Shown here: positions 1 through 20,848 of the stretch, in pieces | Layout: every line of letters starts with the position of its first letter | Position numbering within the stretch: the first letter of the stretch is position 1 | Assembly: GCA_054661495.1 (NCBI GenBank) | Contig: BAAFSQ010000158.1 | Span: 1 to 22,817, forward strand | Origin: Zygophlyctis sp. KS116 | Lineage: Eukaryota; Fungi; Chytridiomycota | Direction: 5' to 3' | DNA length: 22,817 nucleotides | The notes under the pieces: generated by a model | What the model was told of the DNA's origin: nothing | The model's input: the letters and a program-made list of their open reading frames with translations, nothing else | Databases searched by the model: none | Program-made: the position numbers and the translations under genes

Positions 1-1160
1 TACTCAAAAGAAACAAAATCAAGAGAGGTATTATAGTATGATCATATTTATTATTTAGTCAAGTAAATGTGATAATTGTGAATCAGAACTAGCGATTTTA
101 CATTGTGCGGCTGACGCAGCTAATCTTTGCTCAAAATGCGACTCGCAGCTCCATTCGTCCAAATTAGCATCTCGACATGTTCGAACTCCAATAGGAAAGG
201 TGATAAAACAACATTTCTCATAATAGGGCTCAGATGTTTTTGGATATTGTAGACACCATCCAGAAAAATGTATTGAATTCTACTGTTCGCAATGCCATAT
301 ACCAGTTTGTGTTTACTGTAAAATGGTTGGGAATCATGCAAATGGTGAAGCTTCAAGGCATCAATTGGTTAGTGTTTCAGAAGCCTACCAATCAGTGATA
401 CATGAATCTTCTTCGGTATTTTGTCTATTGGTAATTTTAGCCTGATCCGATCCTTCAAAATCGACGTAACGATATTATTTCCCAAATAGGAGCGATTGAA
501 TCGAGAGCTCAAGCAGTTCAGAATTTGCGTAAAACAATAGAATTGCAGATTGAAGAAGCATACAACAAAGCAATGACAGATATTCACAAAATTACTGATC
601 AAAAGGTACAAGTGACTATACCTTTGGTCTAATGTGTAGATGAATACTTTATTAGGTGACAAACTGGAACTTAATAGACAAATGTCTGAAATTGAACGCT
701 TGGAATCTTTCTTGGCTTATCAGCAGCAAGGAGATGCAACTTCATATCTTTTCAATTGGTCACGTCATCAGATGTTTAAATCTGAGCTTCATGATTTCAA
801 GTATTTTAAAAGAGATATTGATGTCCAACTCGATGCCAAGGTACTGATACCAAGACTTATAATTAGATGGTGGGATCACTTTCTGTGGTTATAGAAGAAG
901 AAGACTTTCATTCCAGCGTGCCTGTGAATTCAAGCGCTCATAATAGTCCTTCCAAAAGTAAATCTCCTTTACGAATTTCTCCAAATAAGGTTAACAGACG
1001 GACCTCTGTATGTGTTTATTTTTATTAATGTTAGGATTTATTTGCTGAAACATTGGGGGCTCTAGATCACAGCAGCATTAGAGATGAAGATGATTTTGAC
1101 AGTATATTTTGATTATTTTATATATTAGGCTATGCAGAATCTCTTAGCTTCAGAGACTGA
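1..1160 (+). CDS. Double B-box zinc finger + coiled-coil protein (TRIM-like), 5' truncated by the window; missed by the ORF track except for one exon
   Basis: Removing GT-AG introns 28-58, 200-226, 416-440, 606-639, 841-866, 1008-1034 and 1102-1128 gives one frame: ...SKCDNCESELAILHCAADAANLCSKCDSQLHSSKLASRHVR (B-box1, CONSTANS-like spacing), YCRHHPEKCIEFYCSQCHIPVCVYCKMVGNH (B-box2), a coiled coil, then TGA at 1158-1160. The first donor could alternatively be at 36. Confidence 0.85.
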
Positions 1161-1192
1161 AACATCGCACATATTTAATAACTAAATAAAAC

Positions 1193-2694
1193 TTAAGATT
1201 TTCTACAGTAAACTAATACATTTCCTTTTCTTCTATTGTCATCATGCCAATGACTATTAAAAAAATTGGCACACTAAAAATATTATTAAGATTTATGATA
1301 CCATGGAATACCCAGAATCAGAATAAAATAGCAAATGCTTAATTTGCGGTAAGATACTCTCGAAAAATACAAAATGGCTTGGCCATGATTCCCTTTCTAA
1401 ATTCCGCCACTTAGCATTGATAAATGAGGTCGTGTTTTGATAAAAAAGAGTTTCTGTATTTTGAGAGGGAATTGAAGAATTCCAAGGAGGTTCACAAGTC
1501 AAAAAATCCATCACTATCGGATAGTGAACATGCGAAAAATAAGGAGTTGAGTGACATGGCATTAAGAAAAAAACACTTTTTGCCCTTCCTGACGCTGCCT
1601 CCTTTCTAAGAAAATGTGTAACATCAATCACACCTCTCTGATGAAACAATGAGAGATAAAAAGCCAAAGACAATTGAGTCGAAACTAAAAAAATCCATAA
1701 TTTCCTGCCAATTTTTATCGAAGCCAATCTCTTTCCTGTACTTAACAGTCCAATCGGCAGCATAGGACCTAAAAATCGAAACTCTTTGTGCTTAATAAAG
1801 GAAATAATAACCAAATTCCATACAACAAGAGAACCAAATATCTCATTTTTTAACCCAAGAACCGCCCAGGGTAAATACGTGAACAGAATTGTAGGAAATC
1901 CCTGAGAAAAATACCAGTGAAATGGATGCGTCCCATAAAATTCTGATATTCCAGATATAATGTTTGCTGAAAGAAAATTCCACGGCGTCATAATCCATTC
2001 GCCATAAAATTGATAATCGATTGCCATTATCAGTGCTATTGCACAAATCGCAACTTGTGTGATCAAAAAACATATTGATATTCTATATCCTGGCTTCATC
2101 CAGAGTAATTTTAAGCAGAGAAAGATCCAAATAATAGAACTAGTGGGTCGTATCATACAAGCCAATGCTGCAAATAACAAAGATTTCCGTAGATTTCTAT
2201 AAATAAAAGCACCTTTCCACGGATAATAATAAAATGCAATCGTTGAAAGCGTAGTTTCCAACGTATTAGAGTCTAATAATTAAAATGCTAAATTTACAAG
2301 TTCGAACCATAAAATAAAAATTAAACCAGCTAGTAATTGAAACCAAAAGTACAGTCCTTGCAACATTTAGTGAATATTGTTTATTTGCCCACTTGAATAA
2401 GAAATAATCATTCAAGGCAGCGATCATGGCTTGTAAAACCTTTGGGGCCCAAATTAATGCCAGAGAATTATCTAAATTAAGCATAGCCAACATTCTATAT
2501 AAAACATAAAATATAAAAGGATGAGCAAAACTTCTAATTTTGGCTTTCCACTCCCAAGTCAAATAACCAATATTAAATGCCTTCAAGTGTGCAATTTCTA
2601 GCGATTGCCAAGATTCGTCCGGATCAAAGAAAGTCTGTACACACCATGCATTAAAGATCCTAAAGACTATCAAAAGGAGTAAGAGCCGAAACAT
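1193..2694 (-). CDS. GPI10: GPI alpha-1,2-mannosyltransferase 3 (PIG-B/Gpi10, GT22 family)
   Basis: Motifs TFFDPDESWQSLEIAH, GYLTWEW, IRPT, YGTHPFHWYFSQG, HKEFRF, LMPCHSTP and FNSHWHDDNRRKG. Introns 2273-2297 (25 nt, restores RTYSNTLET) and 1274-1301 (28 nt). Confidence 0.95.
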
Positions 2695-2800
2695 TTTGTC
2701 TCACCTCCGCATTCCCCTGATCGTAAGGACTTTCGGACATCATGATTTCTAACTAATAATAGTAGTATGTCTTAAAATACGTCAATGTTAATACAAAACT

Positions 2801-4650
2801 TTATTCTGGTCCTGAAACATCATTCAGCTGACTCATTAATCTATTCAGACGATTATTAATTTTTGACTATATAGGTTATAAAACAATCCCTTACTGTTGT
2901 CACTGGAACGATTTGAGCTTTTTCTATTTCTTCAACTACAGATTGATCAATTTCACTCAACAAACTTAGCTGTCTCTTGAGTCTTTCCTCAGACAATACT
3001 CGTATCTCCAAGTCTAAATCATCCTTTTCAATAGTTATTTCTTCATCTTTACAAAGACTTGTATTATGTGTGGGGTAAACCCGGGTAATAGGAGCTACTG
3101 TCGTAGATTGTTCAATTCTTGATTTGATACTTGAAGGGGAATTTCTTACATCTAAATCATTTTTTAGATATTTTGATATCGGTGAAAAAAATCTAAATTT
3201 AGAAAAGACGAATTACTCTTCCGAGGAATTCCCATTCCAGAGTGAGACAGATCTAGGATTTGAATTCTGTGTCTGTGGTGTAATGTAATATTCTCTAAAA
3301 GTCTTGCATTCATCATATAAAGGCTCATTTCGATACTTCATTCTTCTAGAGTATCTAAAACTGATGTAACCATATATCATCAAGCATGACTTTGATCCGC
3401 CACGTAGATCACTGATAAATCCAGACATCATGGTGTTATCGACTTGTTCTGACAATAATATCTTGTGATAAGAATATTTTGTCAAAAGAGTATGCCAAAA
3501 CAAGATTTGTACTTGACTTGGAATCCACGCGTGTATACTATTTATGTACAACATTTCTTGAACAGAACCCACTTTTTTCATTGAATAGAAAGTCGTCATT
3601 TCAAAGACGCAGCCAATCAAAAAAGCTTCTATATCAGAAATATTCAGATTAGTAGTGTTTGATTGCTCCATTAATAATGTAAACAGTTTTCTTAACCATC
3701 TTCTAATATCTCCTGATTCGCAATAACAAGCAGTGAAATGTATAATTCGAGACAAATCCCAAGGATACTTTAGAAACGTTAATTCATCAATCAGTAATAG
3801 ATTTCCATTACTTAAAAAATCAAAAATATGCTTGGATTCTTTATCTACTGTATTCTTCAAAAGTGACATTATAGGAGGTAGCATCCAATCAATAGAGAGT
3901 CGAGTTAGATCTTTTCTTTTCACCTTGTTAGATCTCAAACTTGCTTTAAAACATAAAACATTGCCAACCATCCAATTCGACACGCAAGAGTACCTTACCA
4001 AGGTCGTAGGTTCCATATCCTTTACAGGAATATCTGTACTTATAGAAACCAGCAAGTCTATAATATCCTGATCTACATCCTTAAGCTTTGGTATGAGTAC
4101 ATTCGTAGAAACTAAAGTCTGTAAGTGATTCCATGATTTATGGAAGATAAACTTTGCATAAATTTCCTGAGTGTTATAAAAGGTTAAGTACTTGTTTTAG
4201 GTTTGACCATTCTATGGTGGCAAGTTGATCTAGTTCCTTGTCTAAAACATTGTTCATAGAGTCTAGCAAGAGTCCAAAATCATTTAGAATCTGATCCATG
4301 TTTGAATTCTTAAATGCTAAAAAATCGTAAATTGACGCTTTAACTTTTAAATAATCCAAAAGTTCAAAATTGTTTCTTTGAGAAAAGTAAGAATCAAAAA
4401 GAATGAAATTCTCTTTGAAGAATTCCAGAAATTGTTCCTGAAAACTAAAAAATTTCATCAATAAATTCCATGCTAAACTGTAATATTTTCCCAAAATTAA
4501 ATCCTTTGAAAGATTTAAAACATATTCTACAGAAATATCTTTTTTAAATGGGATTGAAGCTAGTTCTGCATGCACCTTTTTATTCCATTGCGGTGAATTG
4601 GGTTCCATTTTAAGCTTTTGCAAGGAAAACTTTAGTGATTTTAAAGGCAT
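2801..4650 (-). CDS. Hypothetical protein with a helical N-terminal part and a charged, coiled-coil-like C-terminus
   Basis: ORFs 4174-4650 and 3213-4055 plus a downstream open frame are joined by introns 4167-4191 (25 nt), 3193-3216 (24 nt) and 2867-2894 (28 nt). Stop TAA at 2801-2803. No family recognised; the last exon is less certain. Confidence 0.65.
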
Positions 4651-4736
4651 TTAAGTAGTCTAATAGCGTTTTTTGTTGTGTTCTAGTGAATCAGTCTCGA
4701 TAGAGTTTCTGGAATAAAATATTTTATAAATTTCTA

Positions 4737-6886
4737 TTAATCAACTACTCTTAGTTGCTGAATCAATTTCCAAAAATGCTTCTCGACCAATTTCCTTTTA
4801 ATCTTCAAGGATGGAGTTAAGAAACCCGATTCAACAGTAAATGGTTCATCCAGCAAGTAAATTCTTTTAGGGATTTGATAGCCTAAAAGTTCATTTGATT
4901 TTCCAACAGCTGTCATATCTTGTAAAATTTCATTCACGAGAAGCGTATTTTGACACAGTGTCCTAAAGTCTAGATTTGAAACAATATTCTTTTTGGCCCA
5001 TACTTTTACAGTTTCAAGTTCAGGGACTACTAAAGCAGTACAAAAGTTATCAAGAGGATTTCCAAATATTACAATCTGTGCAATAAACTTTGAATCCAAC
5101 TTATTTTCTATATTTTCTGGGCATATAAACTCTCCTTGAGATAGTTTGAAAATATTGCTTATACGATCAAGGATTTGAATTGTTCCATTAGGTAGAATTT
5201 GAGCTATATCACCAGTATGGAGCCATCCATCTTTAATCGTTTCTCTAGTTTTTACATCATCTTTATAGTATCCTATCATTATAAATTTAAAATATTTCAA
5301 ACCTTTCATTATAGTAGGTCCAGAGAGGCAAATTTCACCACGAGGATTGGGTTGGTCAGTAGCAAAATATCCAAGACTAGGCACATCAACAAGCTTTAAC
5401 TGCAAGCCAGGAAAAGGAGGCCCAACATGACTTCCCCAAGGATTTTCATAGTCTCCGAAAAGGGTACATGTTCCGGTTCCACAAGATTCAGTCTGACCGT
5501 ATCCTTCAACAATTTCACAACCAAGGACTGCTCTAAAGAAATTAAGAATTTTAGGGTCTACAGGAGCAGCTCCAGTCGCCTAAATTTAAAATTAAAGTGG
5601 TACAATCAATTTAATTCGTCCTCCCAGCTTTTCTGAAATTTTTGTAAAAATTAATCTATCCCAGACAGTATTTTTGTCCAAAATTCCATTTTTGAGTAAC
5701 TTTAGTTTATAACCAAGAGCCAAGTCAAAGAATATTCTCTTAAACTTTGGCAGCAATTCTAATTTTTCCAAAATTTTCGAGTATACTCTTGTTAAAAGCC
5801 GCGGGACCGTGGGGAATAATGTTGGCTTGAATTCCATAATTTCTGTTGGAAACTTGGACACATCACCCGAGGCTAAACCTATTTTAACTCCACACCAAGT
5901 AAATGCTATAAATTTACAAGATTATAAAAAATACCATGAATATTCAACCTTTCAAAAATATGACTCATTGGTAAAAATGATAAATGAGCATCTTCACTCC
6001 CAGGAAGTAAACTCTGAGGAATAATTTTCAATAGCCCTTTCCCAGCTTCAATCATATTACCATGAGTCAACATTACTCCTTTTGGATCCCCTGTAGTCCC
6101 AGATGTATAACAAATCGTAAATACATTATTCAATAAAGGCAATTCAACCTTTTGCAAACCTTTTCGACCTAATTCCAAGACATACTTAAAAGACAAAATT
6201 TCTACACCATCCACTTTCTCCATAACCTCTTTTGGAACTGAATCCACAGTAAGAATTATAAATTTCAAATATTTTGATTTAACCTTTAGTACATCTTTTA
6301 ATTTATCCAAACTAGTAATGAGAATAGTCAATTTTGAATGATTTAAGACTGATTTCAAGTCTAGAGTATTAAAAGACACGTGTATCGGTACAGAAATTAA
6401 AGAATTTATAGAGCATGCATGATCAGAAACTATCCAAAATGAAGAATTTTTCAACAAGATCCCCACCAATGAATTTTGAAAATCAGCACTAGGACTGAAA
6501 CTGGTACTAGCAACTAGACCTAAACTCTTCAAACCTGAACCCAAATCAGAAGCCTGCTCGTAAACTTGACACCAACTAACAGAGTTCCAACCAGACTCTG
6601 ACTTTACTCTAAAATATTCCAAATCCTTGTATTTATCCTTTGACTTTATAAAAGAGTCTGCCAAAGACCCAATATCTAAAATTGGCGATTCCTCGAATTG
6701 AATTAAATTTTGTTTTGCAGCAACAATTGCAGATTCTCCTGGTCTCCTAGACAGAGCAATCTCTGCCTGTCTCTTTATAAACTTTACATTCTGAGATAAT
6801 TTCATCCATAAAATAACGATTATACAAGCAAGAATTGAAGTTATTAGAGCATCCCATTCCCAACTCAGACTTTGTAATAGCGCCAT
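4737..6886 (-). CDS. Long-chain fatty acyl-CoA synthetase (AMP-binding, ACSL/FAA family) with an N-terminal membrane anchor
   Basis: Motifs CYTSGTTGDPKGVMLTHGN, SFLPMSHIFER, TGAAP, EGYGQTE, RGEICLSGP, GWLHTGDI, ILDRISNIFKLSQGEFI and LTPSLKIKR. Introns 5906-5934 (29 nt), 5580-5603 (24 nt) and in-frame 5273-5302 (30 nt). Confidence 0.95.
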
Positions 6887-7117
6887 CTGAATTGAATTGA
6901 CAGTGGTACTTTAAGTAGTACTTTAAGTCGGTCTAAATTAAGGTTTGGGTGTATGTTTACATTTGAATAGAGTTTTTCAGAAACTTGAAATACATCATCA
7001 CTTTGATAGTTTGCAGTTGTACTAAAACTAAAAAAATAAAATTACTAAGTATATAGCAAGAAATTGTAAAATCGCGAATTTCTAGAGAAATTTTTAGAAA
7101 AAAAAAACTTTTTGAAA
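6887..7117. promoter_or_regulatory. Divergent promoter region (acyl-CoA synthetase / ATP7)
   Basis: 231-nt AT-rich spacer between head-to-head genes. Contains direct repeat GTACTTTAAGT x2 (6906-6928) and AAAATCGCG (7068-7076). Confidence 0.55.
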
Positions 7118-7627
7118 ATGTCAAAATCCCTTGGAAAAATCAATTGGGGAGGCCTTTCTTCTAAACTAAGACCAGACACTCTTGCTTCAGTCTCTTCTTT
7201 CAAAAGACAATACGAAGAACTTTCTAAAAAGTTGCTAGAATTACAAGAACAATCAACTACTATTGACTGGTCTGCTTATTCTTCTATTTCTGGAACAAGA
7301 GTATTTTCTGAAGCTCAAAAATCTTTTAATAGTTTCTCTCCAGCAAAAGTAGACTTGGACAAGACTCTAAAATCTATTGCTGTTGAAGAAGAAGTTGCTC
7401 TAAAGGCTGCAAAAGAAACTTCTGCGGCTGTTGCAAAGGAATTAAAAGACTTGAAACAATTACTGGTTGATATTGAATCTGCACGTCCTATTGATCAATT
7501 AACAGTGGATGATGTTGCTAAATCTATTCCTGATTTGGATGCTAAAGTAGAAAAGATGGTTAAGCGCGGACAATGGACTCCACCTGGATATTATGAAAAG
7601 TTTGGAGAATTTAAGATTGGATTCTAA
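7118..7627 (+). CDS. ATP7: Mitochondrial ATP synthase subunit d
   Basis: Intronless. KINW...SSFKRQYEE...TIDWSAY...DIESARPIDQLTVDDV...KVEKMVKRGQWTPPGYYEKFG is typical of fungal subunit d. First ATG at 7118. Confidence 0.93.
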   Translation: MSKSLGKINWGGLSSKLRPDTLASVSSFKRQYEELSKKLLELQEQSTTIDWSAYSSISGTRVFSEAQKSFNSFSPAKVDLDKTLKSIAVEEEVALKAAKETSAAVAKELKDLKQLLVDIESARPIDQLTVDDVAKSIPDLDAKVEKMVKRGQWTPPGYYEKFGEFKIGF

Positions 7628-7668
7628 AGTAAAACTAGATAAAAATTCTTTATAATTCCTGGTTTTTG

Positions 7669-9525
7669 ATGAAAAATTTGTACCAATTCTCCACTTGTGC
7701 GCCTAATAATTTATCTAAAATTCCCTTGTCTACTATTGAGGATTCGGACATGAATAAACCTCACATGGTAAAGTTGGTCTATGAGTCTACACAACCGATA
7801 AAAGATACACAAAAAGACAATGGGAGACAAACAGGACTATCAGACTCTGATCAAGATGTCATTAAATTAAAGAATTCTATAAATTCAACTTTTAAAAAGA
7901 TTGTTCAAGACTCTGAAGAAGAGGATTTGGACATTCAAACGACTCCTGCAAAAATATGTGGAAATGATAAATGTAAAGCGGGACTATCAATTGAATGGAA
8001 AACAGGGGAAAATGGAACTATATTATGTTTTGGTTGTTGGGAATATGTCTCAAAGTACAAGAGTTTTTCAAATTATAAAAAGGAAATTAGGCCTATAATT
8101 TCTAAAAACTTTCATTTCTTAAAATCTCCAAGGAAATTGGTTCAAGAGTCTCCTAGTAAAGCAAATCAGACACTTGATTCTTCTTCGCCACGTCAAGTGA
8201 CTAGTGATTCTTCTTCTGCTAGGAAAAGGCGCCTTGTATCTGCTGCTAAAAGAAATTATAAGGAATCTTCATCAGATGATTTTGAATTTGATAAGCGGAA
8301 TCAAAAGTTGAAAAGAGTTAAACACTACGCTGAAAATAGTTCAAAAGATGTAAAACTGACTCCTGTTAAAATTGATAAAACTACTTCAGTAAGAAATCTT
8401 AATAATTCAGAAAATGAACCTCCTAAATTGATTAGAAATGCGCTAGTTTGGGCTTTTTTGAAGGAAGAAGGGTGTTATTTTAGTGTAATTTAACTGATTA
8501 TCTAATTGCAGGCTCTAGTTGTCTCTGTAGATCTTGATATTTTGGATGTATTATTTTTTCAAGGACAGTCTGGTCATCAATTGCCTCTAGGAAGTTATAA
8601 ATTAAACAAGGACCAAGTTAAAATTTTGGATTTAGAGACAAATCATGTCGTATTTATGGATCATAAAGGGATCAAGGAAGAATTTAAGGTCTCAGAGGTT
8701 CTTTCAGATGGGGCACTGTTGTTGATTCCAAAAAATGAACTTGAAAATGTTATTGTTGGAACTAGACATGGTGTATACATGGATCAAAGGATGATTTCTG
8801 ATAATTCTAAAGCCTCAATTATCAAAAAGAATAAGGAAAATTACAATCAGATTTTTGAAAACGTATTTATTATTTTCTCTGTATCTTCAAATGGGAGTAC
8901 TCAAGACACGATTGATGAATTTCAAGACATGGAAAACTTAAAAAATGCATTTATATTTAGAGGAGGAGAAATTTTTGGGATTGGTGATAATATTCCAGAA
9001 AATTGTAAACATGTTCTCTGTGTGTCCAATATGCCTAATAAAGGAACAGTTTTTTTATCATGTCTGGCTAAAAAAATACCAATTATATCAATGGGATGGC
9101 TTCAACTCTGTATAAGACATGTACTACTTTTAAATTAAGTTTATAGGAAATTTGCATTGATCCTCTTCCATATGCAATTTCAAGTGGAATATCAGAATTA
9201 ATACAAGAAACAAGTTTTCCAGTTTCAAGGTATATTTATCAAAATCTGGAAACTAATCGCGTATTTGAAGGCAAAGAGTACAAGAGTATAATTTTTCTAT
9301 TTTAACTATTTAGTAACTGGAACAAAAGATTTTGTAGAAAAATGGAAATTTATTTTAGAGTGTGGAGGAGCAACTATTGTTGATTCTAACGATGCAATTA
9401 CTTTGAGCCAAGAATCTGAAATGTGGTTGGAGCAGTGTTTGGTTCATCAGTATCATTTTGGCTATTTTGATAATGGACGCCAACTTGATTCTGATATATT
9501 TAATGTGAATAATATTAATAATTAA
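7669..9525 (+). CDS. Rad9/Crb2/53BP1-like checkpoint mediator candidate: GATA-like zinc finger + Tudor-like domain + C-terminal BRCT pair
   Basis: CGNDKC-X17-CFGC finger (7957-8037), Tudor-like VWAFLKEEGCYFSALVVSVD...VLFFQG, BRCT-like IFENVFIIFS...RGGEI...CLAKKIPIISMGWLQLCI, and a second shortened BRCT (VFEGKE...KWKFILECGGA...WLEQCL). Introns 8485-8511, 9121-9146 and 9286-9313. Confidence 0.6.
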
Positions 9526-9570
9526 GTCATGAGAAGTTGAAGTGTAGGATTAGAGACTGTGTTAATTTTA

Positions 9571-12500
9571 ATGGGAAGAGACCGTTCAAAAGATCGCTCT
9601 GAAGATCGTTCAAGGGACAAGTCTGGAGAAAGGCCAAGAAAAGAACCACTAAAAAGATCAAGATCAGGTTCAAGAGATCACAAGGAACGTCGTAGAAAAA
9701 GACATTATTCAAGAGAAAAATCTAGAAAAGACAAAAGATCTAGATCTAGAGATCGTTCAAGGGAAAAACGAAGACATAGAGATCGATCTAAAGATAAAGA
9801 GAGATCAAGTCGGAAAGACAAGTCAAGGGATCGTTCAAGAAAGAGAAGGAGATCCAGAGATCGTTCAAGGGATAGAAATAGATCCAAAGATAGATCTAGA
9901 GACAGAGACCGTTCAAGAGACAAAGATATAAATCGAACCAGAGACAGATCTAAGCACAGTGATAATCATCGTCCAAGTCCAAGGGATATAGAAAATATAT
10001 CAAATGGAGTAGATAGTTATCAAGACGAAAAAATAGGCAGAGAGGAATCTAAAATAGAACAGCCTCAAGATATGGAAATAGAAAGACTTAATGAAGAGGC
10101 GCAAGTTCTTGCAAAAGCTGCATTAATAGAAGCAGAAGAAAAAGTCAAACAACGGAAAGAAAGAATTGAACTTTGGAGAAAGGAAAAGGCATCAAAGGAA
10201 GCAGCAGAAAGTAAAAGCTTAATAGACGCTGCAAAAACTGAATCAATCCCGAAAAATAAAAAATGGAGCTTGGAAGATGAGGATGAAGATGAAGAAGAAG
10301 GTCAGCTTCCTCCTATTTTAGAAGAAAAGGCATTTCCAGAGTGTAATTTTTAAGCTTTGTTAATGATAGTTGTTCCTCCAACTTTGATAAAGAAGGAATC
10401 TAAAAAAGATTTAAAGGTCAATAAGCCCGTTTACAAAAAATCGGCTTTTGGAATCAAGATTAAGCCTCTACAAAAAAGGAAGGAGGTACTCTCTACAACT
10501 CTTTTGCCCGAATTTGAAGAGTCTTCAGAAGAAGAAGTTATCCCAGTTAAATATAATCCTTTATTGGTTAAGCGTGAAGAAATAGTTTCAGAAGCGGAAG
10601 AAGGAGATGCTCTAGAGGCTTTTATGGAAGAAGTTGATACTGCTGCTAAACAAGCGGAAACAGAAACGAAGTCAGTTTCTGCCAATGGAAATGGCCCAGA
10701 ACTTTTGGATTATCTAGTGTCTTCTGGAGATGATGAGGATGAAGAAATGAAATTCACTTCTCCTGAAGCACAAATCGCTGCTGCTGCTGCAAAGATTCAA
10801 GCAAAACGAAAAGATATGGTCAATACCAACCATTCTTTTGTTCAGTATGAGCCATTCAATAAGCAATTCTATATCGAGCCTCCTGAACTGAAGAGCATGA
10901 CTCAAAAAGAAGTTGATGATCGAAGGATAGCACTGGGAGGTATTAAAGTTCGAGGTGCTCGCTGTCCCAAACCGATTGAAAAGTGGGCGCAGTTTGGACT
11001 TCCTCCATCAGTTTTAGAAGTTATTCGAAAGGTGATGCGTTATGAAAAGCCAACTCCGATTCAAGCACAAGCTATTCCTGCGATTATGTCAGGGAGAGAT
11101 GTTATTGGTATTGCAAAAACTGGCTCTGGAAAGGTAATATGCTTAATTTTTTATGAATAGACAATCGCATTCTTGCTCCCCATGCTGCGTCATATCAAAG
11201 ATCAGCGACCAGTGGAGACTATGGAGGGTCCGATAGCATTAATTATGACGCCTACTCGGGAGTTGGCCGTGCAAATATTTCGTGAATGCAAACACTTTAT
11301 TAAACTTCTTAATATTAGAGCATCATGCGTTTATGGTGGAACACCAATAAAGGAACAGATTGCTGAACTTAAGAAGGGAGCAGAAATAATTATTTGTACT
11401 CCAGGTAGGATGATTGATTTACTATGTGCAAACTCTGGGCGCGTAACTAATCTTAAACGGATAACTTATGTGGTGTTGGATGAGGCAGATAGAATGTTCG
11501 ATATGGGCTTTGAACCTCAAGTAATCAAAATTGTAAGTTCTATTAAAAGTAAAGTTTTTTAGGTTAATAATATTCGGCCAGATAAACAGACCGTCCTATT
11601 TTCAGCTACATTCCCCAAAAAGATGGAAGCCTTGGCTCGTAAAATTCTTCGCAAACCTCTAGAAATTATTGTCGGTGGTCGTAGTGTTGTCTGTAGTGAT
11701 GTAACTCAGTATGTAGAAGTTCGAGATGAAGATTCAAAGTTTGTCAGACTATTAGAGATTTTAGGACAGACATTTATTGAAGATTCAGAGGCCAAAGTTT
11801 TAATATTCGTTGATCGACAAGAAGCAGCCGATTCTCTATTAGCCCAATTACTTAAACGTGGTTACCCATGCACAACTCTTCACGGAGGAAAAGATCAAAC
11901 AGATCGTGATTCTACACTTTCAGATTTCAAGAATGGGGATACTAACATATTGATTGCAACATCTGTTGCAGCCAGAGGACTTGATGTAAAGCAATTAAAA
12001 GTAGTTGTAAACTATGAATGTCCTAATCATATGGAAGATTACATTCATCGGTAATATATTCTTATTAATTATAGTGTTGGAAGAACTGGTAGAGCCGGAT
12101 CTAAAGGAGAAGCATACACATTTATTACGCCAGACCAAGATAAATTTGCCGGGGATATAATAGAAGCACTCAATAGATCACTAGTCCCTATTCCAGAAGA
12201 ATTAGATGCATTGGAGAGGACATTTTTAGAAAAGGTAAGAACAGGAGAAGCAGCCCCTTCCTCTTCTGGATATGGTGGAAAAGGATTAGAGAAATTGGAT
12301 AAGGAACGTGATATGAAGAAACGAATAGAGAAAAAGACACATGGAGGTGATTTAGACGAAGAAGACGAAGATGAAGACGCTGTAATTTTTTCTAAACTAA
12401 TTAAAAAAACAGAATCGTGAAGCCCGTGAAAAACTAGAAAAAAGCTTTGATGAGAAAGTTACAGCTGGTACAACTGGACCTGTTGAAGCACCAACCCCAT

Positions 12501-12948
12501 CAGCACCTGTAATCATTAGTAGACCTGGTAGACCATCAATGAATTTGAGTGGATTAGCCAAAGCCAGAGAAATCATTGCCAGCTTTTCAAAAACCCCAAC
12601 TGCTACCACCACATTTGCATCTGAATTTGCCTATGAAATTGAAATTAATGATTATCCTCAAAAAGCTCGATGGATAGTAACAAGCAAGGAAACTATAAGT
12701 AGATTATCTGAAATGACTGGAGCTGCAATTACAACCAGAGGAAGTTTTTTCCCACCTGGAACTTTTGTTCCTGTAGGACGACGCAAACTATACTTGGTAA
12801 ATTTTAAAATTTTAATAATTAGTATATTGAAGGTGATTCTCAAGTTTCAATTGATAAAGCCAAGAGTGAAGTTCGAAAGTTGATTACTGAAGCCACACTG
12901 GAAGCTATGGAAACTGATACCGTGTCATCTCGATATACAGTAGTTTAA
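9571..12948 (+). CDS. PRP5: Pre-mRNA-processing DEAD-box helicase Prp5/DDX46
   Basis: RS/RD-rich N-terminus; Q motif YEKPTPIQ; [44 protein letters not shown] and [10 protein letters not shown]; C-terminal KH-like [11 protein letters not shown]...AAITTRG; ends RYTVV. Introns 10343-10369, 11134-11160, 11533-11562, 12051-12074, 12382-12412 and 12797-12822. Confidence 0.97.
9580..9955 (+). repeat. Coding low-complexity repeat (Asp-Arg-Ser-Arg units, e.g. GATCGTTCAAG) forming the RS domain of Prp5
   Basis: Repeated GATCGTTCAAG/GATAGATC-type units translating as DRSR/DRSK. Confidence 0.8.
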
Positions 12949-12969
12949 TTCGGAAATTTATAAAGTCAC

Positions 12970-13437
12970 ATGGATCCATCTAAACAGCAATTTATGTCTT
13001 CTATTCCTCGTCCGTCCTTTGACCAAATCCCAGGATATATTTCTTCTTATTATCCAATGATTGACGACGCTTCTCCGACTGATTCATTCTCTGACCGGAT
13101 AAAGCATCGTAAAGAATTACATAAAGAAGTTGAAAAAAGGAGAAGACAAAACATCAATGATGGAATTCTAGAATTATCAAAACTTTTACCTGAAAATACT
13201 CCAAAATCTAAAGGAAATATCATTTCTTCTGCTGTTAATTATATAAAGAGTCTAAAATCCATGATTGGAAACTTTGATCAAATACAACAAGTTGAAAAAT
13301 GGAATTATGAAAAAACTAAATTGTTGGATGAAATCAAAAATCTTTCTAATCAAGTTAAATCTCTAAAAAATGAAAATGAATCCCTTAGAGCACTCAGGTT
13401 TGAAATTCCAATGATTTCAAAAGAGACTGATGATTAA
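12970..13437 (+). CDS. CBF1: bHLH-zipper transcription factor, Cbf1-like
   Basis: RKELHKEVEKRRRQNINDGILELSKLLP...KGNIISSAVNYIKSLK followed by VEKWNYEK, which resembles the Cbf1-type IEKWTLEK zipper. Intronless. Confidence 0.75.
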   Translation: MDPSKQQFMSSIPRPSFDQIPGYISSYYPMIDDASPTDSFSDRIKHRKELHKEVEKRRRQNINDGILELSKLLPENTPKSKGNIISSAVNYIKSLKSMIGNFDQIQQVEKWNYEKTKLLDEIKNLSNQVKSLKNENESLRALRFEIPMISKETDD

Positions 13438-13522
13438 ATACATACTATAAAATTAGAATTAACACTTGTCCGATTTCAACTCTTTTTAAATCTTGATTCA
13501 TATGATTTATTAAAAAAACTAG

Positions 13523-14173
13523 TTATATTTGCGAATTCAAATATTCAATCAATTGATTATTTCCACTCATCTTTGCAGAATGTTTTATAAGAAACGATAT
13601 ATTCCCTGTATCTTTAATTCCCAACCATTCTCTTATATATCTTGTAATTTCTAAATCTCCACTTCCAGCAGCACACTTTAGTGTATTTAAATTTGGTTGA
13701 ATCTTATAATCCACCATCAACATTTTTACAAGTTTTGAATTATGAGAGAATGCAGCTCTATTGAGTGTTTCATTCAAAATTAAATCTTTATCATTTACAT
13801 TTAGAGTTATCAAATTCTTAATCAACATTACAACAGCCTTAAAATTTCCTAATTGAGCAGCAAGTTTAAGAGCTCTAAAATTATCTAAACTAAAATCAAT
13901 TGTAGGATTCTTTAATAATTGTAAAAGTCTGAAATTTAGAGTTTTTGAGTCAAAAGTTGAATGTTTTACATCTACAAACCAATGTTTAAGAGCAAGCTGA
14001 TTAGCAGAGATTGCATCATGAGTAGAAATATGATTATTTTTCTTAAATTTATATTGTTCCATTTGTAAATATTCAACATTTCTCAAATTCCCAAATTCAT
14101 TAGGAACTATAGTTATAGAATTTTGAAAAGTCCCTGACACAGCATCCACAAGTAAATAGAAGAAGAAAATCAT
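13523..14173 (-). CDS. Ankyrin-repeat protein with a possible signal peptide
   Basis: Three ankyrin-like units (ALKLAAQLGNFKAVVMLI, TLNRAAFSHNSKLVKMLM, TLKCAAGSGDLEITRYI). First ATG at 14173 gives the hydrophobic start MIFFFYLLVDAVSG. Confidence 0.7.
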   Translation of the reverse strand: MIFFFYLLVDAVSGTFQNSITIVPNEFGNLRNVEYLQMEQYKFKKNNHISTHDAISANQLALKHWFVDVKHSTFDSKTLNFRLLQLLKNPTIDFSLDNFRALKLAAQLGNFKAVVMLIKNLITLNVNDKDLILNETLNRAAFSHNSKLVKMLMVDYKIQPNLNTLKCAAGSGDLEITRYIREWLGIKDTGNISFLIKHSAKMSGNNQLIEYLNSQI

Positions 14174-14422
14174 TTGCTCTGACTTGATTCCTAAACTGCT
14201 TATGCTTTTTGCAATCACCTGCTTGCTTGCTAAAGGACTCTTAAAAAATTTACTTTAAATGTTTATTTTAAAATTTAGACTATAAAAAATCATGTTTTCA
14301 TTAACAAACTTGAAGTTTTAGTGTTTGAGTAGTAGCTAGCAAGTAGAAACTAGAAACAGCAAGAGCAGAGTTTCAAAACCAGTAAAATTTTCTTTCAAAT
14401 TTTCGTTGTTTAAAAAGTTTAA

Positions 14423-16178
14423 ATGAACAAAACTTGTGCTTCTAATGGATATTTCCCATCTCCTGGCTCATCAATCGGATCTAATTCTATTGCATCAATG
14501 ATAAAGTTGAATGTTACAATTTACTTTACTCCTGAATTACCATTTATTCCACCGGCACTCACTAGACAGCCACAAAAAGTACTTGATATTGTAAAGATTA
14601 TGGTTGTTATGGCTCCTTATAAATCAGTTGCACATTTAAAGCAACAGATTTCTAAAACAATTTCTATAATTTCAAAGGATGAAAGGCTTGCATTTAATAA
14701 TTTAGAATTGTCTTCAATTAGAAATTCTCAGAATTTTGTGGCTCATAATGAGATGATTCTTGGACATGTTTTTCATCATGATGAAAATATTTATGCTATA
14801 GTTATTTCACAAGTTGGGAGGTTACAACAACAGTATATAGCTTCTCCACAATCTGATCGTAATCATCTACATCAGCATTATCAACATGGCAATGATAAAA
14901 TTCATGATTCTAAATCTCATTCTCATCATGGAAAATATTCAAGTCATCCATTGGTTGATAGAAATGAAAGATCAAGACTAGTTCAAAGTAGGGATAATAT
15001 TACAACTTCTGAAGATTCTGGGTCAGAGTCTGATGGGAGTTATGAAAGTTCTTTTGTGGAAAAAGAAGAAAGAGAAGGCTTTTTGGATTTAGAGGCTGAA
15101 GAGACTGATGGTTCAGAATCTACTGAGAATTCTCCGTCTCCTACATTCAAGGATCCTGTTTTATCTAATCGTAAAGTTTCACTAACAGAATTAAAAAAGA
15201 GAAGAAAAAGTTTGATTCAAGTCTCAGAGTCTGAAGAGGATGAATATCCAGAACAGTTTAAATCACATAGTCATTACGTGACTAATCTTGTAGAGGATAA
15301 AATTCAATTGAAATCAGAGGAAAATGGAAATGGTTTAGAGAATCAGGATGATAAAGAAGTTGATACAGAAGTTGTGGTAAAAGAAATGGAAATGGATCAA
15401 GAAAATGTTTCTGAACAAGCTAAAAATAATACAACTGAATCTTCTAGTGAATCCTCAGAAGAAGAGGAACCTGCCCAAGCTACTATTAGTAAAGGGAATG
15501 AAATTGTAAGAGATTCTGGAAATGATTCAGAAACTACTTCTGAGGCTGGCTCTGAATCTTCAGAGGAAACTACTATAGAAGAAAATGAAGACTCTAATAA
15601 TCATGATAAACCAGTAGAATCTACTAGTCAACCCAAATTCAATTTGGAAAAAGAAAAAGATTCTGTAGACTCAAAAATTGAAAAACAAGATTCCAAATCT
15701 AAAGAATCTACTCCATCAAAGCCATCTAAATCCTCTAAAAAATCCTCTGTTAAAAGAAAATATTCTTCCCTATCTGAAATTGCTAGTAATGCTTCTAATC
15801 ATAGTTCCTCTTCAAAGGCTGAAAAAAGTAAAAATCAGTCTAGATTTTCTAGCTCTTCTAGTGACAGCGACAGCTCTGAATCTCAAAATTCTAATGGAAA
15901 AAAAGTTAAAAGATCTTCTTTAAAATCTTTATCAAAAGATGGTATTAATATTTTTGAATTAATATTTAGTTTCCAATAACATCAAGAAAACTAGCAAACC
16001 AAAATCAGTACAATTAAAACCAAAAACAACTACAAAACAACCACCCAAAAAAATCGTCAAGAATACTAAAGTCTCTCCTAAATCAAAGTCTGGGAATCCA
16101 ATCAATGCCTTGTTGAATGGATCGAGTGAATTTAAATCACAGAGACAAGTTGATTCTAGCAGTAGCGAAAACGAGTAA
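14423..16178 (+). CDS. Nucleolar-type low-complexity protein with a folded N-terminal domain resembling Net1/Tof2/Dnt1 N-termini
   Basis: A 518-codon exon plus intron 15942-15969 (28 nt) and a K/S/P-rich last exon ending TAA at 16176-16178. Acidic S/E tracts and basic clusters. The family assignment is by eye only. Confidence 0.7.
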
Positions 16179-16199
16179 AAAAATCGCGTTTAAAAAAAA

Positions 16200-16582
16200 A
16201 TGGAAGAATCTGCGTACAAAGGAACTAGATTTATAGGGAACATCCCAGACTCTGCACATTCACCCTTCCCTGTAATTGCAAGTGAGCCTTCTGTGACCAA
16301 TCTTATTAGATACATGAGACCATCTGACATTATGACCATTTCTCTTATAACTACAATCCCCCCAACACTCTTAGTTTTGTGGGAAAGATCTAAACCATCT
16401 GTGTCTTATAGAATCCTACCCAAATCAATTCTTTTCATTCAAATTCCTACATTTTTTGTCGCTGGAGGACTGTGGGCACTGAAAACCTCTCTATGTAATT
16501 ATTATATTTCTTAATTTTAGTTCGATTTTGGGGAAAGTTGGAGAATTCAATTGAAGTTGAAAAATGGAATAATCAGTCTTAA
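16200..16582 (+). CDS. Complex I accessory subunit NUXM (20.9/21 kDa, NDUFB1/MNLL-related), short form
   Basis: FPVIASEPSVTNLIRYMRPSD...LWERSKP...SLFRFWGKLENSIEV matches the family pattern YP.I..DP....V.RY.RPSD...WER...RF.G..EN..EV. Intron 16495-16520 (26 nt). Confidence 0.8.
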
Positions 16583-16596
16583 TACATCATAATGCC

Positions 16597-18787
16597 TTAA
16601 TAATTTTCCTTTGCTTCTCTGGCTAATTCTTCTCCCTCTTTTTGAATAATTCCAATATGAAGAATTCGATCACCGGCTTGAGCTACTGGGTTGGATGATC
16701 TTCCAATAGTAATTCCAGATACAGGTGCGTATATTTCATCTACAATATTTCCAAATATATTCTTGATTCTAATCATTAAATAACAAGCTATATTACCTGG
16801 CAATTAAATCACCCTTCTTTAAAAATGTATTCACATTAGGATAAACCTCTAAAACACCTCCTGTACTAGTATATATCCAAAATCCTTTAGAACATATAAT
16901 CATGTTTGGAGGTTTACTTAATTCAGACTCTGGTGTGAACATACTTAGATAGGAAAGTATTCGCATTACACCCGAATAAGACCACAGAACATATCGACTT
17001 TGGAATAATTGAGGATTTCCGATTTCTACAGTTATTGCTTTTATACCTAAAGACATGGCTTCAGAACGAAGTGTACCTATGTTTGGTCAGTAATATGGTA
17101 AAATACCGTCATTTCCACTATTATGCAATATAATCTGAGGTTGCTGCAATTTGGTTAGAGTGCTAGCAACGGGATCATTCATATCAGCTCTCACGTAATA
17201 AGAATTAAGTCTTCCAAATGACGCAGTGTGTAGATCAATCAGGTAATCAAAGCATTTAATGATTTTATGCATTAATTCGTAAGCATAGACTTGAGATGCG
17301 GTTCCATTCTTGTTTCCAGGAAATGTACGATTCAGATCTTTTCCATCCGAAAATTCACGGGTAAATCGTAGGTATCCAGGAACGTTAACACATGGTACAG
17401 CAACTACAGTTCCAGAAAGTTGAGAAACATCAAGTTCATTAATTACTCTATGAATAGTAGGTACTCCATTTAATTCATTCCCATGAATAACTGCAGTGAT
17501 TCCTACCACAGGACCGGGTTCCTTGCCACGAGCAACAATAACAGGAATACGAATCCAATCTGATAGTCCTTGCTTAACCATGTTAACCCAAGCAGTTGAA
17601 ATTTGACTTGTAGGAAAATCCTCAATCACAAGGGAGTCTTTAATTATTGGAGGAGGAACTTCAGATTCATTCAGTGATCTTTCCGTAAAGGCAGGAGGAG
17701 TATAGCGCTTGGCTGATTCAAGATACGAAAATGATCCAGACTGTCCAATGCTTGATAAATCCATTAGACTCATCTGGGAGTCCAAAGCCGGAAGCGAAAT
17801 ACTGGGCGGACTAGGAGCCAACTCGTCGAAAATTATAATAGATGAAGTCCTGTCCCTCATTGGTCGTGTAACCGACATTGGTTTAAGCTCTGGAGTAGTT
17901 AATTCAATCCCAGTGAGTGATTTGACAGTGTTAATTTGGACCAATAGAACTAATGCATCATCTACCACTTTAAGAAACATAAACTAACCAGTAAAATTGT
18001 CATTCTCAACTACAGGAGTCATTGATATATCAGCAGGAGAACTTGCATCCAATCTTTCACAAACAATTGCCTCTCCTTTATCTAACTTTATATTCGAACA
18101 AGTTAAATGCATCATCTTTACATTTATAGAGCCAGATATGACATATATAATCGTATAATTGCCTAGCAAGTACTTTGAAGAAGGAGTGGATTTCGCATGA
18201 TTAGAAACGGATCCTTTTGCGTCATCATTAAGTGTATTGCTGCTAAGATCTGCATCATTTTTTACAGGTTCCCCCATTGTAGGAGCAACCACATTTTCTA
18301 AATTCATTGACACATTTGCCCATTTTTTGTTGACCGTTAGAGTCAAGTATGTCAATGGTGCCTTAACTTTACACACAGTAGGCCAGCTTCCATCAAATGT
18401 ATAAGGTATTAAAACTTTAAGCGGCACAGGAGTTTCATTATCATTATGATACAATGTAGCGAATGGTTCGCCCTAATTTTAAATAATCCAATAGATCTAC
18501 CTCATCAGGCAGCGCGAGAATTCCAACATCATAGCCCGGGGCAAAAGAAAATGAGCATGAATCAATCACACTTGACAAGCAGAGCTTCCATACAAAATCC
18601 TGTGCATCAGAAGAGAGATGAGCAGGATGTATGGCCAAGTCTATTGTTTCCCCTAAACCATTTTTCCATTGAAACTGATGGCACTTTGCCGGCGAAATTA
18701 CCTGTAATTTTATTTCTAATAAAATACTTGTATTGAAGGGAGCGGTCGGACAATAGATTTAGATCGTTTTAGATCTGTTTTGTTCAT
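16597..18787 (-). CDS. Fusion protein: N-terminal HutD/Ves cupin domain + C-terminal succinylglutamate desuccinylase/aspartoacylase (AstE/AspA, M14) zinc hydrolase
   Basis: Five introns (18702-18727, 18473-18500, 17962-17988, 17077-17106, 16769-16796) join five ORF-track fragments. HutD-like [16 protein letters not shown]...[11 protein letters not shown]...FSFAPGYD; M14 motifs [23 protein letters not shown] and ITVEIG; C-terminal barrel-sandwich APVSGITIG...[14 protein letters not shown]. Confidence 0.88.
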
Positions 18788-18982
18788 CGTTAAAATACAC
18801 TTTTCTGAGAATCACGTTGTATACCCTGAGCCCACCATTAGCATCCAAACAGTTGAAGATGTCCGAATATATTTCAGAACTCACATTAGCATATCGTTTT
18901 CTGATTTAATAATCCCACTATTCATTGCATCTATTGCGAAGCAATGCATTGCGGGAATTTTCGGGTTAATATTCCGTGAAGA
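18788..18982. promoter_or_regulatory. Divergent promoter region (HutD-AstE / STK33-like)
   Basis: 195-nt spacer between head-to-head genes. Contains 12-bp palindrome GCAATGCATTGC (18941-18952) overlapping GCGGGAA. Confidence 0.5.
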
Positions 18983-20848
18983 ATGTCCGATGAAGGAGAC
19001 AATAGTCCGGTTAATGACTCAAATGATGAATTAACAACATATGCTACAATGACTCCAAATGTATTATCACCTACTGGCTCCAAAAATGCTCTTCATGCTG
19101 AACTGGATCTCAATCGCTCGCTAGCTCTTGGACCAAAGTCGCCAATAAAGAAGAAGAGTCTTCCGGCTGGGAGAAGACTTCAAGATATTGATCCCAATCT
19201 CTCAGGATCCATTGATTTTTCTGGAGATTCAAAGCCTAAGATTTTGCATCATAGAGTTGATGATCTCTCGGCGTTGGAAGAGAGCTATGAAATCGGTAAA
19301 AAATTAGGACAGTAATTCATTTATTTTATACTAAATTAAGAGGTGCATTTGGTACAGTGAGGGTTATCGAACACAAAGCCAGTCATGAGAGCTTTGCTTG
19401 TAAATGCATAAAGAAAAGATTTGGATCGACATCATTATATGAGCAATTGCAAAAAGAATTGGTTATAATGAAAAAGGTTAAGCATCCAAATATTGTTCAG
19501 CTATACGAGGTTTACGAAACACCAAAGAAGATGTTTATGATCATGGAATGGTGATTTTTTAAAAGTGTTAATTCTTCAGTTGTAGAGGGGGCGAGCTTGT
19601 ACAGAAAATCAGAAATAGGAGATATTGTACTGAAGAAGAAACAAGGATAATTATAAGAAAATTAACGGATGTCATTGGATATCTTCATGATCATGGAGTT
19701 GTTCACAGAGATATTAAAGTATGATTCAAAATTAATTCTGATTTTAGCCTGAAAATATTCTCCTCTCGACTCTAGACGAAAATGATGAATTTAACATTAA
19801 AGTATCAGATTTTGGACTTGCGACATTCAGTGATACTTGTACAATGATGGAAAATGTGGCAGGAACTCCGATGTATATGGCTCCTGAAATTGTTAAAAAT
19901 TTGGGATATTCTGGTCAATGTGATATTTGGAGTATGGGGGTTATGATGTATTTACTGTACGTAATATTTTGAAACTTAAAATAGCTTGTGTGGATACAGA
20001 AAAGATGTAGAATTCAAACTTCATAAGTATATTGCTAATGGCTTAATCGAGTTTCCGGATGAACTATTCAAAGATATATCTCCAGAAGGTAAATTAGAGT
20101 CTAACTCATTTAAGCAATTAATTTATGCGAGCACATGCTTAAATTTGATCCAGCAAAACGTTTAACCGCAAGAGAAATCCAAGGCCACCCATGGATTACT
20201 GGTGATGCAAAAGTCTCATCCATTAAGCCGAATGTACTAGATCTAATGCGATCATATAATGCCGAGAGAAGATTGAAAAAAATTCTAATAACAGTATTAG
20301 CATCAATTAGATTTATGTCTGTTCTAATCAAAGACAGACCCCGACAGGTTCTTGGGTCATCAACGTTTGTAAGTTTCTTATCTCTGGAGGATTCGGGCAA
20401 CACCTCCAACTCATCATTGACAAAAGGGCCATCCAGCCAAAAGGGCTCTCTTCTGCTAAAAAAGACTGAATCTGGTACCAAAACACCCACACATTCAGAA
20501 AAGTCTAAAGTATCAACCAAAAGAGAATCTAAAATCAAGACAACTGAAGAAGAGTCAAAAATTAACAGACACAAGAGCGTAAAGGAAAACCAGCTCTCTT
20601 CTAATCTTAATAGAAAATCCATTGATAAAATAGCAGAAAAACTAGAGAATAAATCAAAATCTAATCGACCTAAAAGATCTTCAAAGGATTTAAATGAAGC
20701 TCGAACACCTCCTCTACCAAAATTGGGCATACCACATTTACCAACATCTTCTGCTACCATATCCACAGTCAAATCACCATCTAACCGTACGAGGAATACA
20801 CCTGGAAAATCCAATGATCTGGGACCAAAAATAGGGGAACTCAAATAA
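18983..20848 (+). CDS. STK33: CAMK-group Ser/Thr kinase, STK33-like
   Basis: LGQGAFG, ACK, HRDIKPEN, FNIKVSDFGLA, AGTPMYMAPE, YSGQCDIWSMGV and post-kinase PNVLDLMRSY, as in STK33. Introns 19312-19340 (AAG acceptor), 19551-19579, 19719-19747, 19957-19984 and 20089-20114 (AAG acceptor). Confidence 0.85.

Follow-up and report, generated by a model that had tools for sequence, protein, structure and literature searches.

How small a spliceosomal intron can become is an open question, and each independent lineage close to the lower size limit is a natural experiment. Whether a fungus has arrived there is the question raised by contig BAAFSQ010000158.1, a eukaryotic stretch of 22,817 nucleotides (nt) analysed at its full length and called the window here. 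Curation from the sequence gave 37 GT-AG introns in 10 of the 15 genes of the window, from position 28 to position 20114, with 36 of them firm and one doubtful. Judged from the DNA, these segments are very probably normal spliceosomal introns of the U2 type, belonging to a fungus (likely a chytrid) with a compact genome, and have shrunk to near the minimum that its spliceosome can handle.

The curated lengths, with the number of introns in brackets, are 24 (4), 25 (3), 26 (6), 27 (7), 28 (7), 29 (4), 30 (3), 31 (2) and 34 nt (1), with a mean of 27.4, a median of 27 and a standard deviation (SD) of 2.2 nt. In this one window 34/37 introns are 30 nt or shorter, and four homologous introns in close relatives measure approximately 24–30 nt. 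All 37 introns are GT-AG, with GTA (33), GTG (2) or GTT (2) as the donor and TAG (30), CAG (5) or AAG (2; at 19340 and 20114) as the acceptor, so that 35/37 end in YAG. They are 79% A+T, against 64% in coding DNA, and occur at a density of 1.86 per kb of coding DNA. A first-pass annotation of the window, made without database searches, had described 36 AT-rich GT-AG introns of 24–34 nt (mean about 27.5 nt), two of them with AAG acceptors, and this description holds with one intron more. Once the introns are removed, 15/15 genes translate without an internal stop, and retention would be disruptive (frame break or stop) for 35/37. The two that could be retained without disruption are 466–489, which is the doubtful one and is covered by no homologue, and 5273–5302, which is supported; the weakest calls are 466–489 and the donor of 19957–19984. 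Other classes of intron were considered and rejected: U12-type introns (donor RTATCCTT), since GTATCC is absent from the donor hexamers; a fixed-length regime with one or two lengths, as nine different lengths occur between 24 and 34 nt; and introner elements, as there is no sequence family (best pair score 11.0, against a mean shuffled maximum of 11.9).

The calls were tested with two predictors and with homologues. A naive predictor, with zero splice-site weights and a flat length prior of 12–400 nt, made 38 calls, 25 of them at 24–31 nt and the other 13 at 13–21 or 37–228 nt. Its long calls (42–228 nt) were rejected because they delete conserved coding sequence, and most of them are an extended tiny intron. 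A trained predictor, with leave-one-gene-out splice weights, a flat prior of 16–600 nt (10.6% of its mass on 24–34 nt) and gene ends fixed by hand, made 35 calls, of which 34 are identical to the curated set and one is of 37 nt; it missed both stopless in-frame introns (466–489 and 5273–5302). Profiles of homologues (28 PRP5, 74 acyl-CoA synthetase and 10 prokaryotic AstE sequences) were used to rank 14 introns against every frame-restoring GT/GC-AG alternative of up to 400 nt, with 36–133 open-frame alternatives per intron. Nine of the 14 ranked first by at least 13 bits, the intron at 12382 came second by 0.8 bit, and four lie beyond the conserved part and are hence uninformative. Two kinase junctions and one mannosyltransferase junction tile their Pfam domains without gap or overlap. 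Among the introns singled out in the first-pass annotation for restoring conserved motifs, GSGK/T and HR/VGRT (the slash marks the intron) rank first against homologues, and the DIK/PEN junction tiles PF00069. Altogether 15 introns, all of 24–31 nt, are anchored by independent homology, three of them via relatives (841, 1008 and 12382). As decoys, six segments in 19.8 kb of coding DNA pass a filter of GTA, YAG and at least 72% A+T, as do 25/37 of the real introns. The introns are listed below with the evidence for each; L001 is a related locus, X11 a sequencing run with a related contig, and the P numbers are related database proteins.

28..58, + strand: intron of 31 nt, B-box gene; frame and stop; naive and trained predictors
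200..226, + strand: intron of 27 nt, GTG donor, B-box gene; in-frame stop; a B-box Pfam match on either side; naive and trained predictors
416..440, + strand: intron of 25 nt, B-box gene; frame; naive and trained predictors
466..489, + strand: doubtful intron of 24 nt, B-box gene, in frame and stopless; signals only
606..639, + strand: intron of 34 nt (the longest), B-box gene; trained predictor; the starts of P0158 and P0159 align with residues past the acceptor
841..866, + strand: intron of 26 nt, B-box gene; 3/3 homologues (P0158–P0160) colinear over the junction; trained predictor
1008..1034, + strand: intron of 27 nt, B-box gene; P0160 reads through here, with an insert of 20 residues (60 nt); trained predictor
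1102..1128, + strand: intron of 27 nt, B-box gene; in-frame stop; trained predictor
1274..1301, − strand: intron of 28 nt, mannosyltransferase; curation; trained predictor
2273..2297, − strand: intron of 25 nt, mannosyltransferase; exons tile PF03901 (2–131, 133–414)
2867..2894, − strand: intron of 28 nt, unknown gene 4650–2801; frame only; trained predictor
3193..3216, − strand: intron of 24 nt, unknown gene 4650–2801; in-frame stop; naive and trained predictors
4167..4191, − strand: intron of 25 nt, unknown gene 4650–2801; frame; trained predictor
5273..5302, − strand: intron of 30 nt, GTT donor, acyl-CoA synthetase, in frame and stopless; rank 1/99, 15.8 bits over retention
5580..5603, − strand: intron of 24 nt, acyl-CoA synthetase; rank 1/36
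5906..5934, − strand: intron of 29 nt, acyl-CoA synthetase; rank 1/66
8485..8511, + strand: intron of 27 nt, BRCT-like gene; naive and trained predictors
9121..9146, + strand: intron of 26 nt, BRCT-like gene; naive and trained predictors
9286..9313, + strand: intron of 28 nt, BRCT-like gene; naive and trained predictors
10343..10369, + strand: intron of 27 nt, PRP5; naive and trained predictors; profile ranking uninformative
11134..11160, + strand: intron of 27 nt, PRP5 (GSGK/T); rank 1/119
11533..11562, + strand: intron of 30 nt, PRP5; rank 1/133; 30 nt in L001 with diverged interior; 10-residue read-through in P0035
12051..12074, + strand: intron of 24 nt, PRP5 (HR/VGRT); rank 1/97; exactly these 24 nt missing in L001; P0038 reads through 36 nt at this site
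12382..12412, + strand: intron of 31 nt, PRP5, candidate recent gain; exactly these 31 nt missing in L001; net 31-nt skip in the X11 contig
12797..12822, + strand: intron of 26 nt, PRP5; rank 1/70; 24 nt in L001
15942..15969, + strand: intron of 28 nt, acidic/serine-rich gene; frame; naive and trained predictors
16495..16520, + strand: intron of 26 nt, complex I 21-kDa subunit; Pfam; naive and trained predictors
16769..16796, − strand: intron of 28 nt, AstE-AspA; rank 1/106; four 1-nt deletions within it in X11
17077..17106, − strand: intron of 30 nt, AstE-AspA; rank 1/48; deletions totalling 5 nt within it in X11
17962..17988, − strand: intron of 27 nt, GTT donor, AstE-AspA; two 1-nt insertions within it in X11; naive and trained predictors
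18473..18500, − strand: intron of 28 nt, AstE-AspA; naive and trained predictors
18702..18727, − strand: intron of 26 nt, AstE-AspA; curation; trained predictor
19312..19340, + strand: intron of 29 nt, AAG acceptor, kinase (GQ/GAFG); 3′ exon begins at PF00069 position 10; both predictors
19551..19579, + strand: intron of 29 nt, GTG donor, kinase; exons tile PF00069 (10–78, 80–125)
19719..19747, + strand: intron of 29 nt, kinase (DIK/PEN); exons tile PF00069 (80–125, 126–188)
19957..19984, + strand: intron of 28 nt, kinase; curated to preserve MYLLLCGY; trained predictor prefers 19948–19984 (37 nt, upstream donor)
20089..20114, + strand: intron of 26 nt, AAG acceptor, kinase; both predictors; 3′ exon is PF00069 238–263

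The signals within these introns are sparse. Nearly all of the donor information lies in GTA. A branch-type TAA falls wholly within positions −10 to −6 in 18/37 introns, compared with 6.6 ± 2.3 in 20,000 shuffles, and 25/37 have an A at −8 (P = 0.0004 over 15 positions). A pyrimidine tract, a common though not a defining feature of such introns in fungi, is lacking: the pyrimidine fraction is 0.56 before the acceptor and 0.59 elsewhere. Both the shuffles and this fraction bear out the loose TAA motif near the acceptor, without a tract, that had been noted on the first reading. When the nearest TRA is taken as the branch site (33 introns), it lies 16–27 nt from the donor, mostly 18–23. AGs that are skipped inside introns are all within 22 nt of the donor (18/18), and a later AG that falls within 34 nt is left unused in six introns.

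A mechanism can be proposed from these features. Each intron would be recognised as a single unit (intron definition), as introns this short leave no alternative to recognition across the intron. U1 and U6 would recognise a donor reduced to GTA, and U2 would recognise a loose TAA with its A approximately 7–8 nt before the end and 18–23 nt after the donor. As there is no pyrimidine tract, the 3′ site would be the first AG past the branch point, which in effect means the first one at a distance of 23 nt or more from the donor, and high A+T may serve as an extra cue that sets the segment apart from exons. In a model of a floor plus deletion bias, taken from work on Mikrocytos mackini (PMC10245619), deletion bias would erode intron length to a floor of approximately 23–24 nt set by the donor-to-branch span, and length would not be fixed. 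Introns are still turning over, with exact loss in relatives and a likely 31-nt gain in the lineage of the window. The proposal of a strict length-based intron definition keeps its intron definition; 'strict' is an overstatement for lengths of 24–34 nt, because homologous introns differ between relatives (26 vs 24 nt, and several indels of 1–2 nt in three introns).

The relatives come from environmental contigs (freshwater, lake, aquatic and wetland metagenomes; the 8 runs used, of 20 listed, are all contigs marked DNA and so cannot show splicing, and no RNA source is among those listed) and from database proteins. The L001 locus has PRP5 and the bHLH gene in synteny with the window, and its protein identity in the query exon is 96%. 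It keeps the introns at 11533 (30 nt) and 12797 (24 vs 26 nt) with their ends conserved and their interiors diverged, and lacks those at 12051–12074 and 12382–12412, exact to the base. Of the 12 indels listed for X11, from a total of 65, ten lie inside three called introns, and a net 31 nt is skipped at 12382. Across the relatives the exons remain in frame and the intron interiors drift. Other genes of the window were found in none of 79 of the 80 metagenome loci, those at 70–74% identity. The related database proteins (P0035, P0037, P0038 and P0154–P0160) are all unspliced read-throughs or fragments, hence the clade is poorly represented in protein collections. P0037 spans two junctions and was considered as a spliced transcript, which was rejected as DNA of the L001 type lacks both introns and the open reading frame (ORF) of P0037 enters the next intron.

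A loss and a probable gain can be read from PRP5. The window shares the older HR/VG intron (12051–12074) with the sister lineage P0038, where it has 36 nt, and apparently with P0035, where the ORF ends. Four close relatives lack it exactly (L001 716–718), so it was lost in them. At 12382 no insert is found in any of the six related unspliced ORFs that span the site, P0038 among them, and a gain on the branch of the window is the simplest reading. The intron at 12382–12412 is therefore a candidate, and likely, recent de novo gain; no flanking duplication is visible, and its interior has a T-run and an A-run. Lengths are graded across these comparisons, from 60 nt in a more distant B-box homologue (at a site where the window has 27) to 36 nt in the sister lineage and 24–31 nt in the clade.

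The host was described initially as fungus-like, and it does appear to be a fungus; the PRP5 phylogeny refines this to a core chytrid and does not place it near Microsporidia. In an IQ-TREE analysis of 27 PRP5 sequences (one gene, no rozellid or sanchytrid), the window and P0038 fall in a 97/97 clade with Spizellomycetales, Rhizophydiales, Chytridiales and Blyttiomyces helicus, from which Cladochytrium, Polychytrium and Quaeritorhiza are excluded. This points to a host within the core Chytridiomycota, nested among chytrid orders, although a PRP5 FastTree gave no order-level placement within the chytrids. ATP7 has environmental relatives at 80–88% identity, and its species-named matches are all chytrids, at 53% or less. 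Zygophlyctidales or Clade I, which parasitise phytoplankton and are sister to Rhizophydiales (Thome preprint), might be candidates for the host group. The order PRP5, 21 nt, bHLH gene (9571–13437, + strand) is the same in L001 and is found again in a fused gene model of Batrachochytrium salamandrivorans (P0063), in which the bHLH follows PRP5 (E 2.7e-11).

Several points weigh against ordinary, shrunken chytrid introns. All of the evidence is at the level of DNA, with no splice junction observed, and 22/37 introns rest mainly on frame restoration and signals, after curation by hand with short lengths expected. In 37/37 introns the acceptor is the first AG 23 nt or more beyond the donor, a figure that is partly circular, and late internal AGs are only marginally depleted (P = 0.046 and 0.062). 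Introns whose length is a multiple of three (3n) are not significantly richer in stops (12/14 vs 14/23, P = 0.15), so that selection of the NMD type on them is a trend only. A single 22.8-kb window leaves room for long introns elsewhere, PRP5 is the sole spliceosome component seen in it, and the host tree is limited in gene and taxon sampling as stated above. If the segments were simply unspliced, they would be assembly artefacts, parts of decayed genes or mostly retained introns as in microsporidia, where short introns have been shown to be spliced at less than 20% on average (PMC6349667). We regard this as highly improbable, as contigs from independent studies span intron-bearing stretches without gaps, PRP5 and the GPI mannosyltransferase, which have several introns each, would be truncated by retention, and the relatives combine in-frame exons with drifting intron interiors.

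A remodelled spliceosome with a strict ruler, as in Stentor or Mikrocytos, in which U1, U2AF or SF1 is reduced or lost and sequence signals are nearly irrelevant, would account for the narrow band of lengths (SD 2.2), for donor information almost confined to GTA without a pyrimidine tract, and for the invariable skipping of AGs nearer than 23 nt. It is unlikely given the 11-nt range of lengths and their shifts between homologous introns of relatives, a positioned branch-type motif with AG at 37/37 acceptors, and a full-length PRP5 (1070 amino acids) that retains its RS-rich N-terminus. A host among Rozella-like early lineages, where tiny introns may already be the norm, would remove the need for an independent origin; no close named protein exists (ATP7 at most 53%), rozellids were left out of the trees, and the mean of 46 nt in Rozella allomycis is the lowest for any of the intron-rich genomes compared. 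Such a host is nevertheless improbable in view of the 97/97 nesting among chytrid orders, the lack of a Rozella protein among the 120 of 4931 PRP5 matches listed, the gene order in common with Batrachochytrium, and a complex I subunit, as complex I is reported lost in R. allomycis (PMC5701793), although Paramicrosporidium retains it.

Ultra-short introns in a chytrid are best seen against known systems. The fungal means used here are selected rows (10 genera) of a table covering over 600 genomes (Lim et al., 2021, Table S1). Mean introns there are 70 nt in Spizellomyces punctatus, 94 in Gonapodya prolifera and 126 in Batrachochytrium dendrobatidis, with 104 in Allomyces, 48–51 in Pneumocystis and 50–61 in Wallemia; R. 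allomycis has 20,623 introns (mean 46 nt, 2.77 per kb) and Encephalitozoon approximately 30–36 per genome (mean approximately 30 nt). The three named chytrids, of the same phylum, have means 2.5–4.6 times that of the window, with the caveat that annotation means overstate modes, and densities of 2.4–3.6 per kb, of the same order as 1.86 in the window. The lower density speaks against the first-pass view that introns had shrunk without being lost, as does the exact loss of at least one PRP5 intron in close relatives. R. allomycis is likewise an intron-rich zoosporic lineage with short introns, but belongs to another phylum and is without complex I. Encephalitozoon, also among the relatives of fungi and with similar intron lengths, has few introns that are poorly spliced (PMC6349667), whereas the window alone has 37.

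Outside the fungi, Paramecium (approximately 25 bp) has many introns that are all ultra-short and GT-AG, with a similar modal size, but it is a ciliate in which stopless 3n introns are counter-selected (PMC5014332). Myxobolid myxozoans and Dicyema have medians of 22–27 bp (27 in Henneguya salminicola, equal to the window) and share a GTa donor, a weak A-run before the AG (presumed branch site) and the lack of a tract (PMC13644364); these are animals, one without a mitochondrial genome, while the window, of fungal origin, carries genes for complex I and ATP synthase and has a clear YAG preference. M. mackini (16–17 nt) is similar in its extreme shortening without outright loss, and differs in its fixed length, conserved sequence, total of only 224 introns and reduced spliceosome (PMC10245619). 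A 2026 survey of such introns covers ciliates, Microsporidia, dicyemids and myxozoans, with Microsporidia as the only fungal exceptions listed (PMC13644364). No report of introns below 30 nt in Chytridiomycota was found in a search that covered few subscription papers, and supplements may hold intron statistics; neither the main text of Amses 2022 nor, by listing, the Thome preprint contains the word 'intron', which occurs in PMC13391722 and PMC8371127 in methods or references only. The phenomenon is therefore a known one in what seems to be a new lineage. We lean, by a little over even, towards a widespread freshwater chytrid clade, possibly of algal parasites, that independently evolved Paramecium-type ultra-short introns while staying intron-rich and respiring, with recent and graded shrinkage and new tiny introns still arising. 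If true, a fungal spliceosome could be watched nearing its minimum substrate, in an intron-rich genome inside the true fungi whose close relatives differ in intron presence. The longer intron of the sister lineage at a shared site would allow changes in U1, U2AF, SF1 and SF3b to be ordered against shrinkage. Gene callers with the usual minimum intron length will fragment such genomes.

The remainder of the window is compact, with 15 protein genes occupying 87% of its length, spacings of 14–249 nt and G+C of 28–40% per kb. Pfam identifies a double B-box protein, a PIG-B-type mannosyltransferase, an acyl-CoA synthetase, a bHLH factor, an ankyrin protein, the complex I 21-kDa subunit, an AstE/AspA hydrolase with a HutD-like start, a kinase, an L7Ae-family ribosomal protein (RPS12-like) and a Reeler protein; ATP synthase subunit d and PRP5/DDX46 were identified via homologue searches. 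The 'full' oxidative phosphorylation claimed at first reduces to two genes, those for ATP synthase subunit d and the complex I 21-kDa accessory subunit. An Rfam scan gave no match in the window and hence no small nuclear RNA, and an ESM Atlas query with ATP7 returned family identity only. The genes located are as follows.

1–1160, + strand: double B-box gene, 5′ end beyond the window
2694–1193, − strand: PIG-B/GPI10-type mannosyltransferase gene
4650–2801, − strand: unknown gene, 590 amino acids, no Pfam match in the pieces scanned
6886–4737, − strand: long-chain acyl-CoA synthetase gene
7750–9525, + strand: BRCT-like gene
9571–12948, + strand: PRP5/DDX46 gene, 1070 amino acids, full length with RS-rich N-terminus
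14423–16178, + strand: unknown acidic/serine-rich gene, 575 amino acids, no Pfam match in the pieces scanned
16200–16582, + strand: complex I 21-kDa accessory subunit gene
18787–16597, − strand: HutD-like/AstE-AspA gene
18983–20848, + strand: CAMK-type kinase gene

Some gaps between genes are very short, at 14–30 nt (16178–16200, 16582–16597 and 1161–1193), which implies overlapping untranslated regions or promoters. In the gene at 16597–18787 (− strand), which has five introns, a HutD-like domain precedes the AstE/AspA domain as a fusion, and the latter has 50–56% identity to several bacterial and archaeal proteins. This AstE/AspA-family gene is a possible candidate for an old transfer, in either direction.

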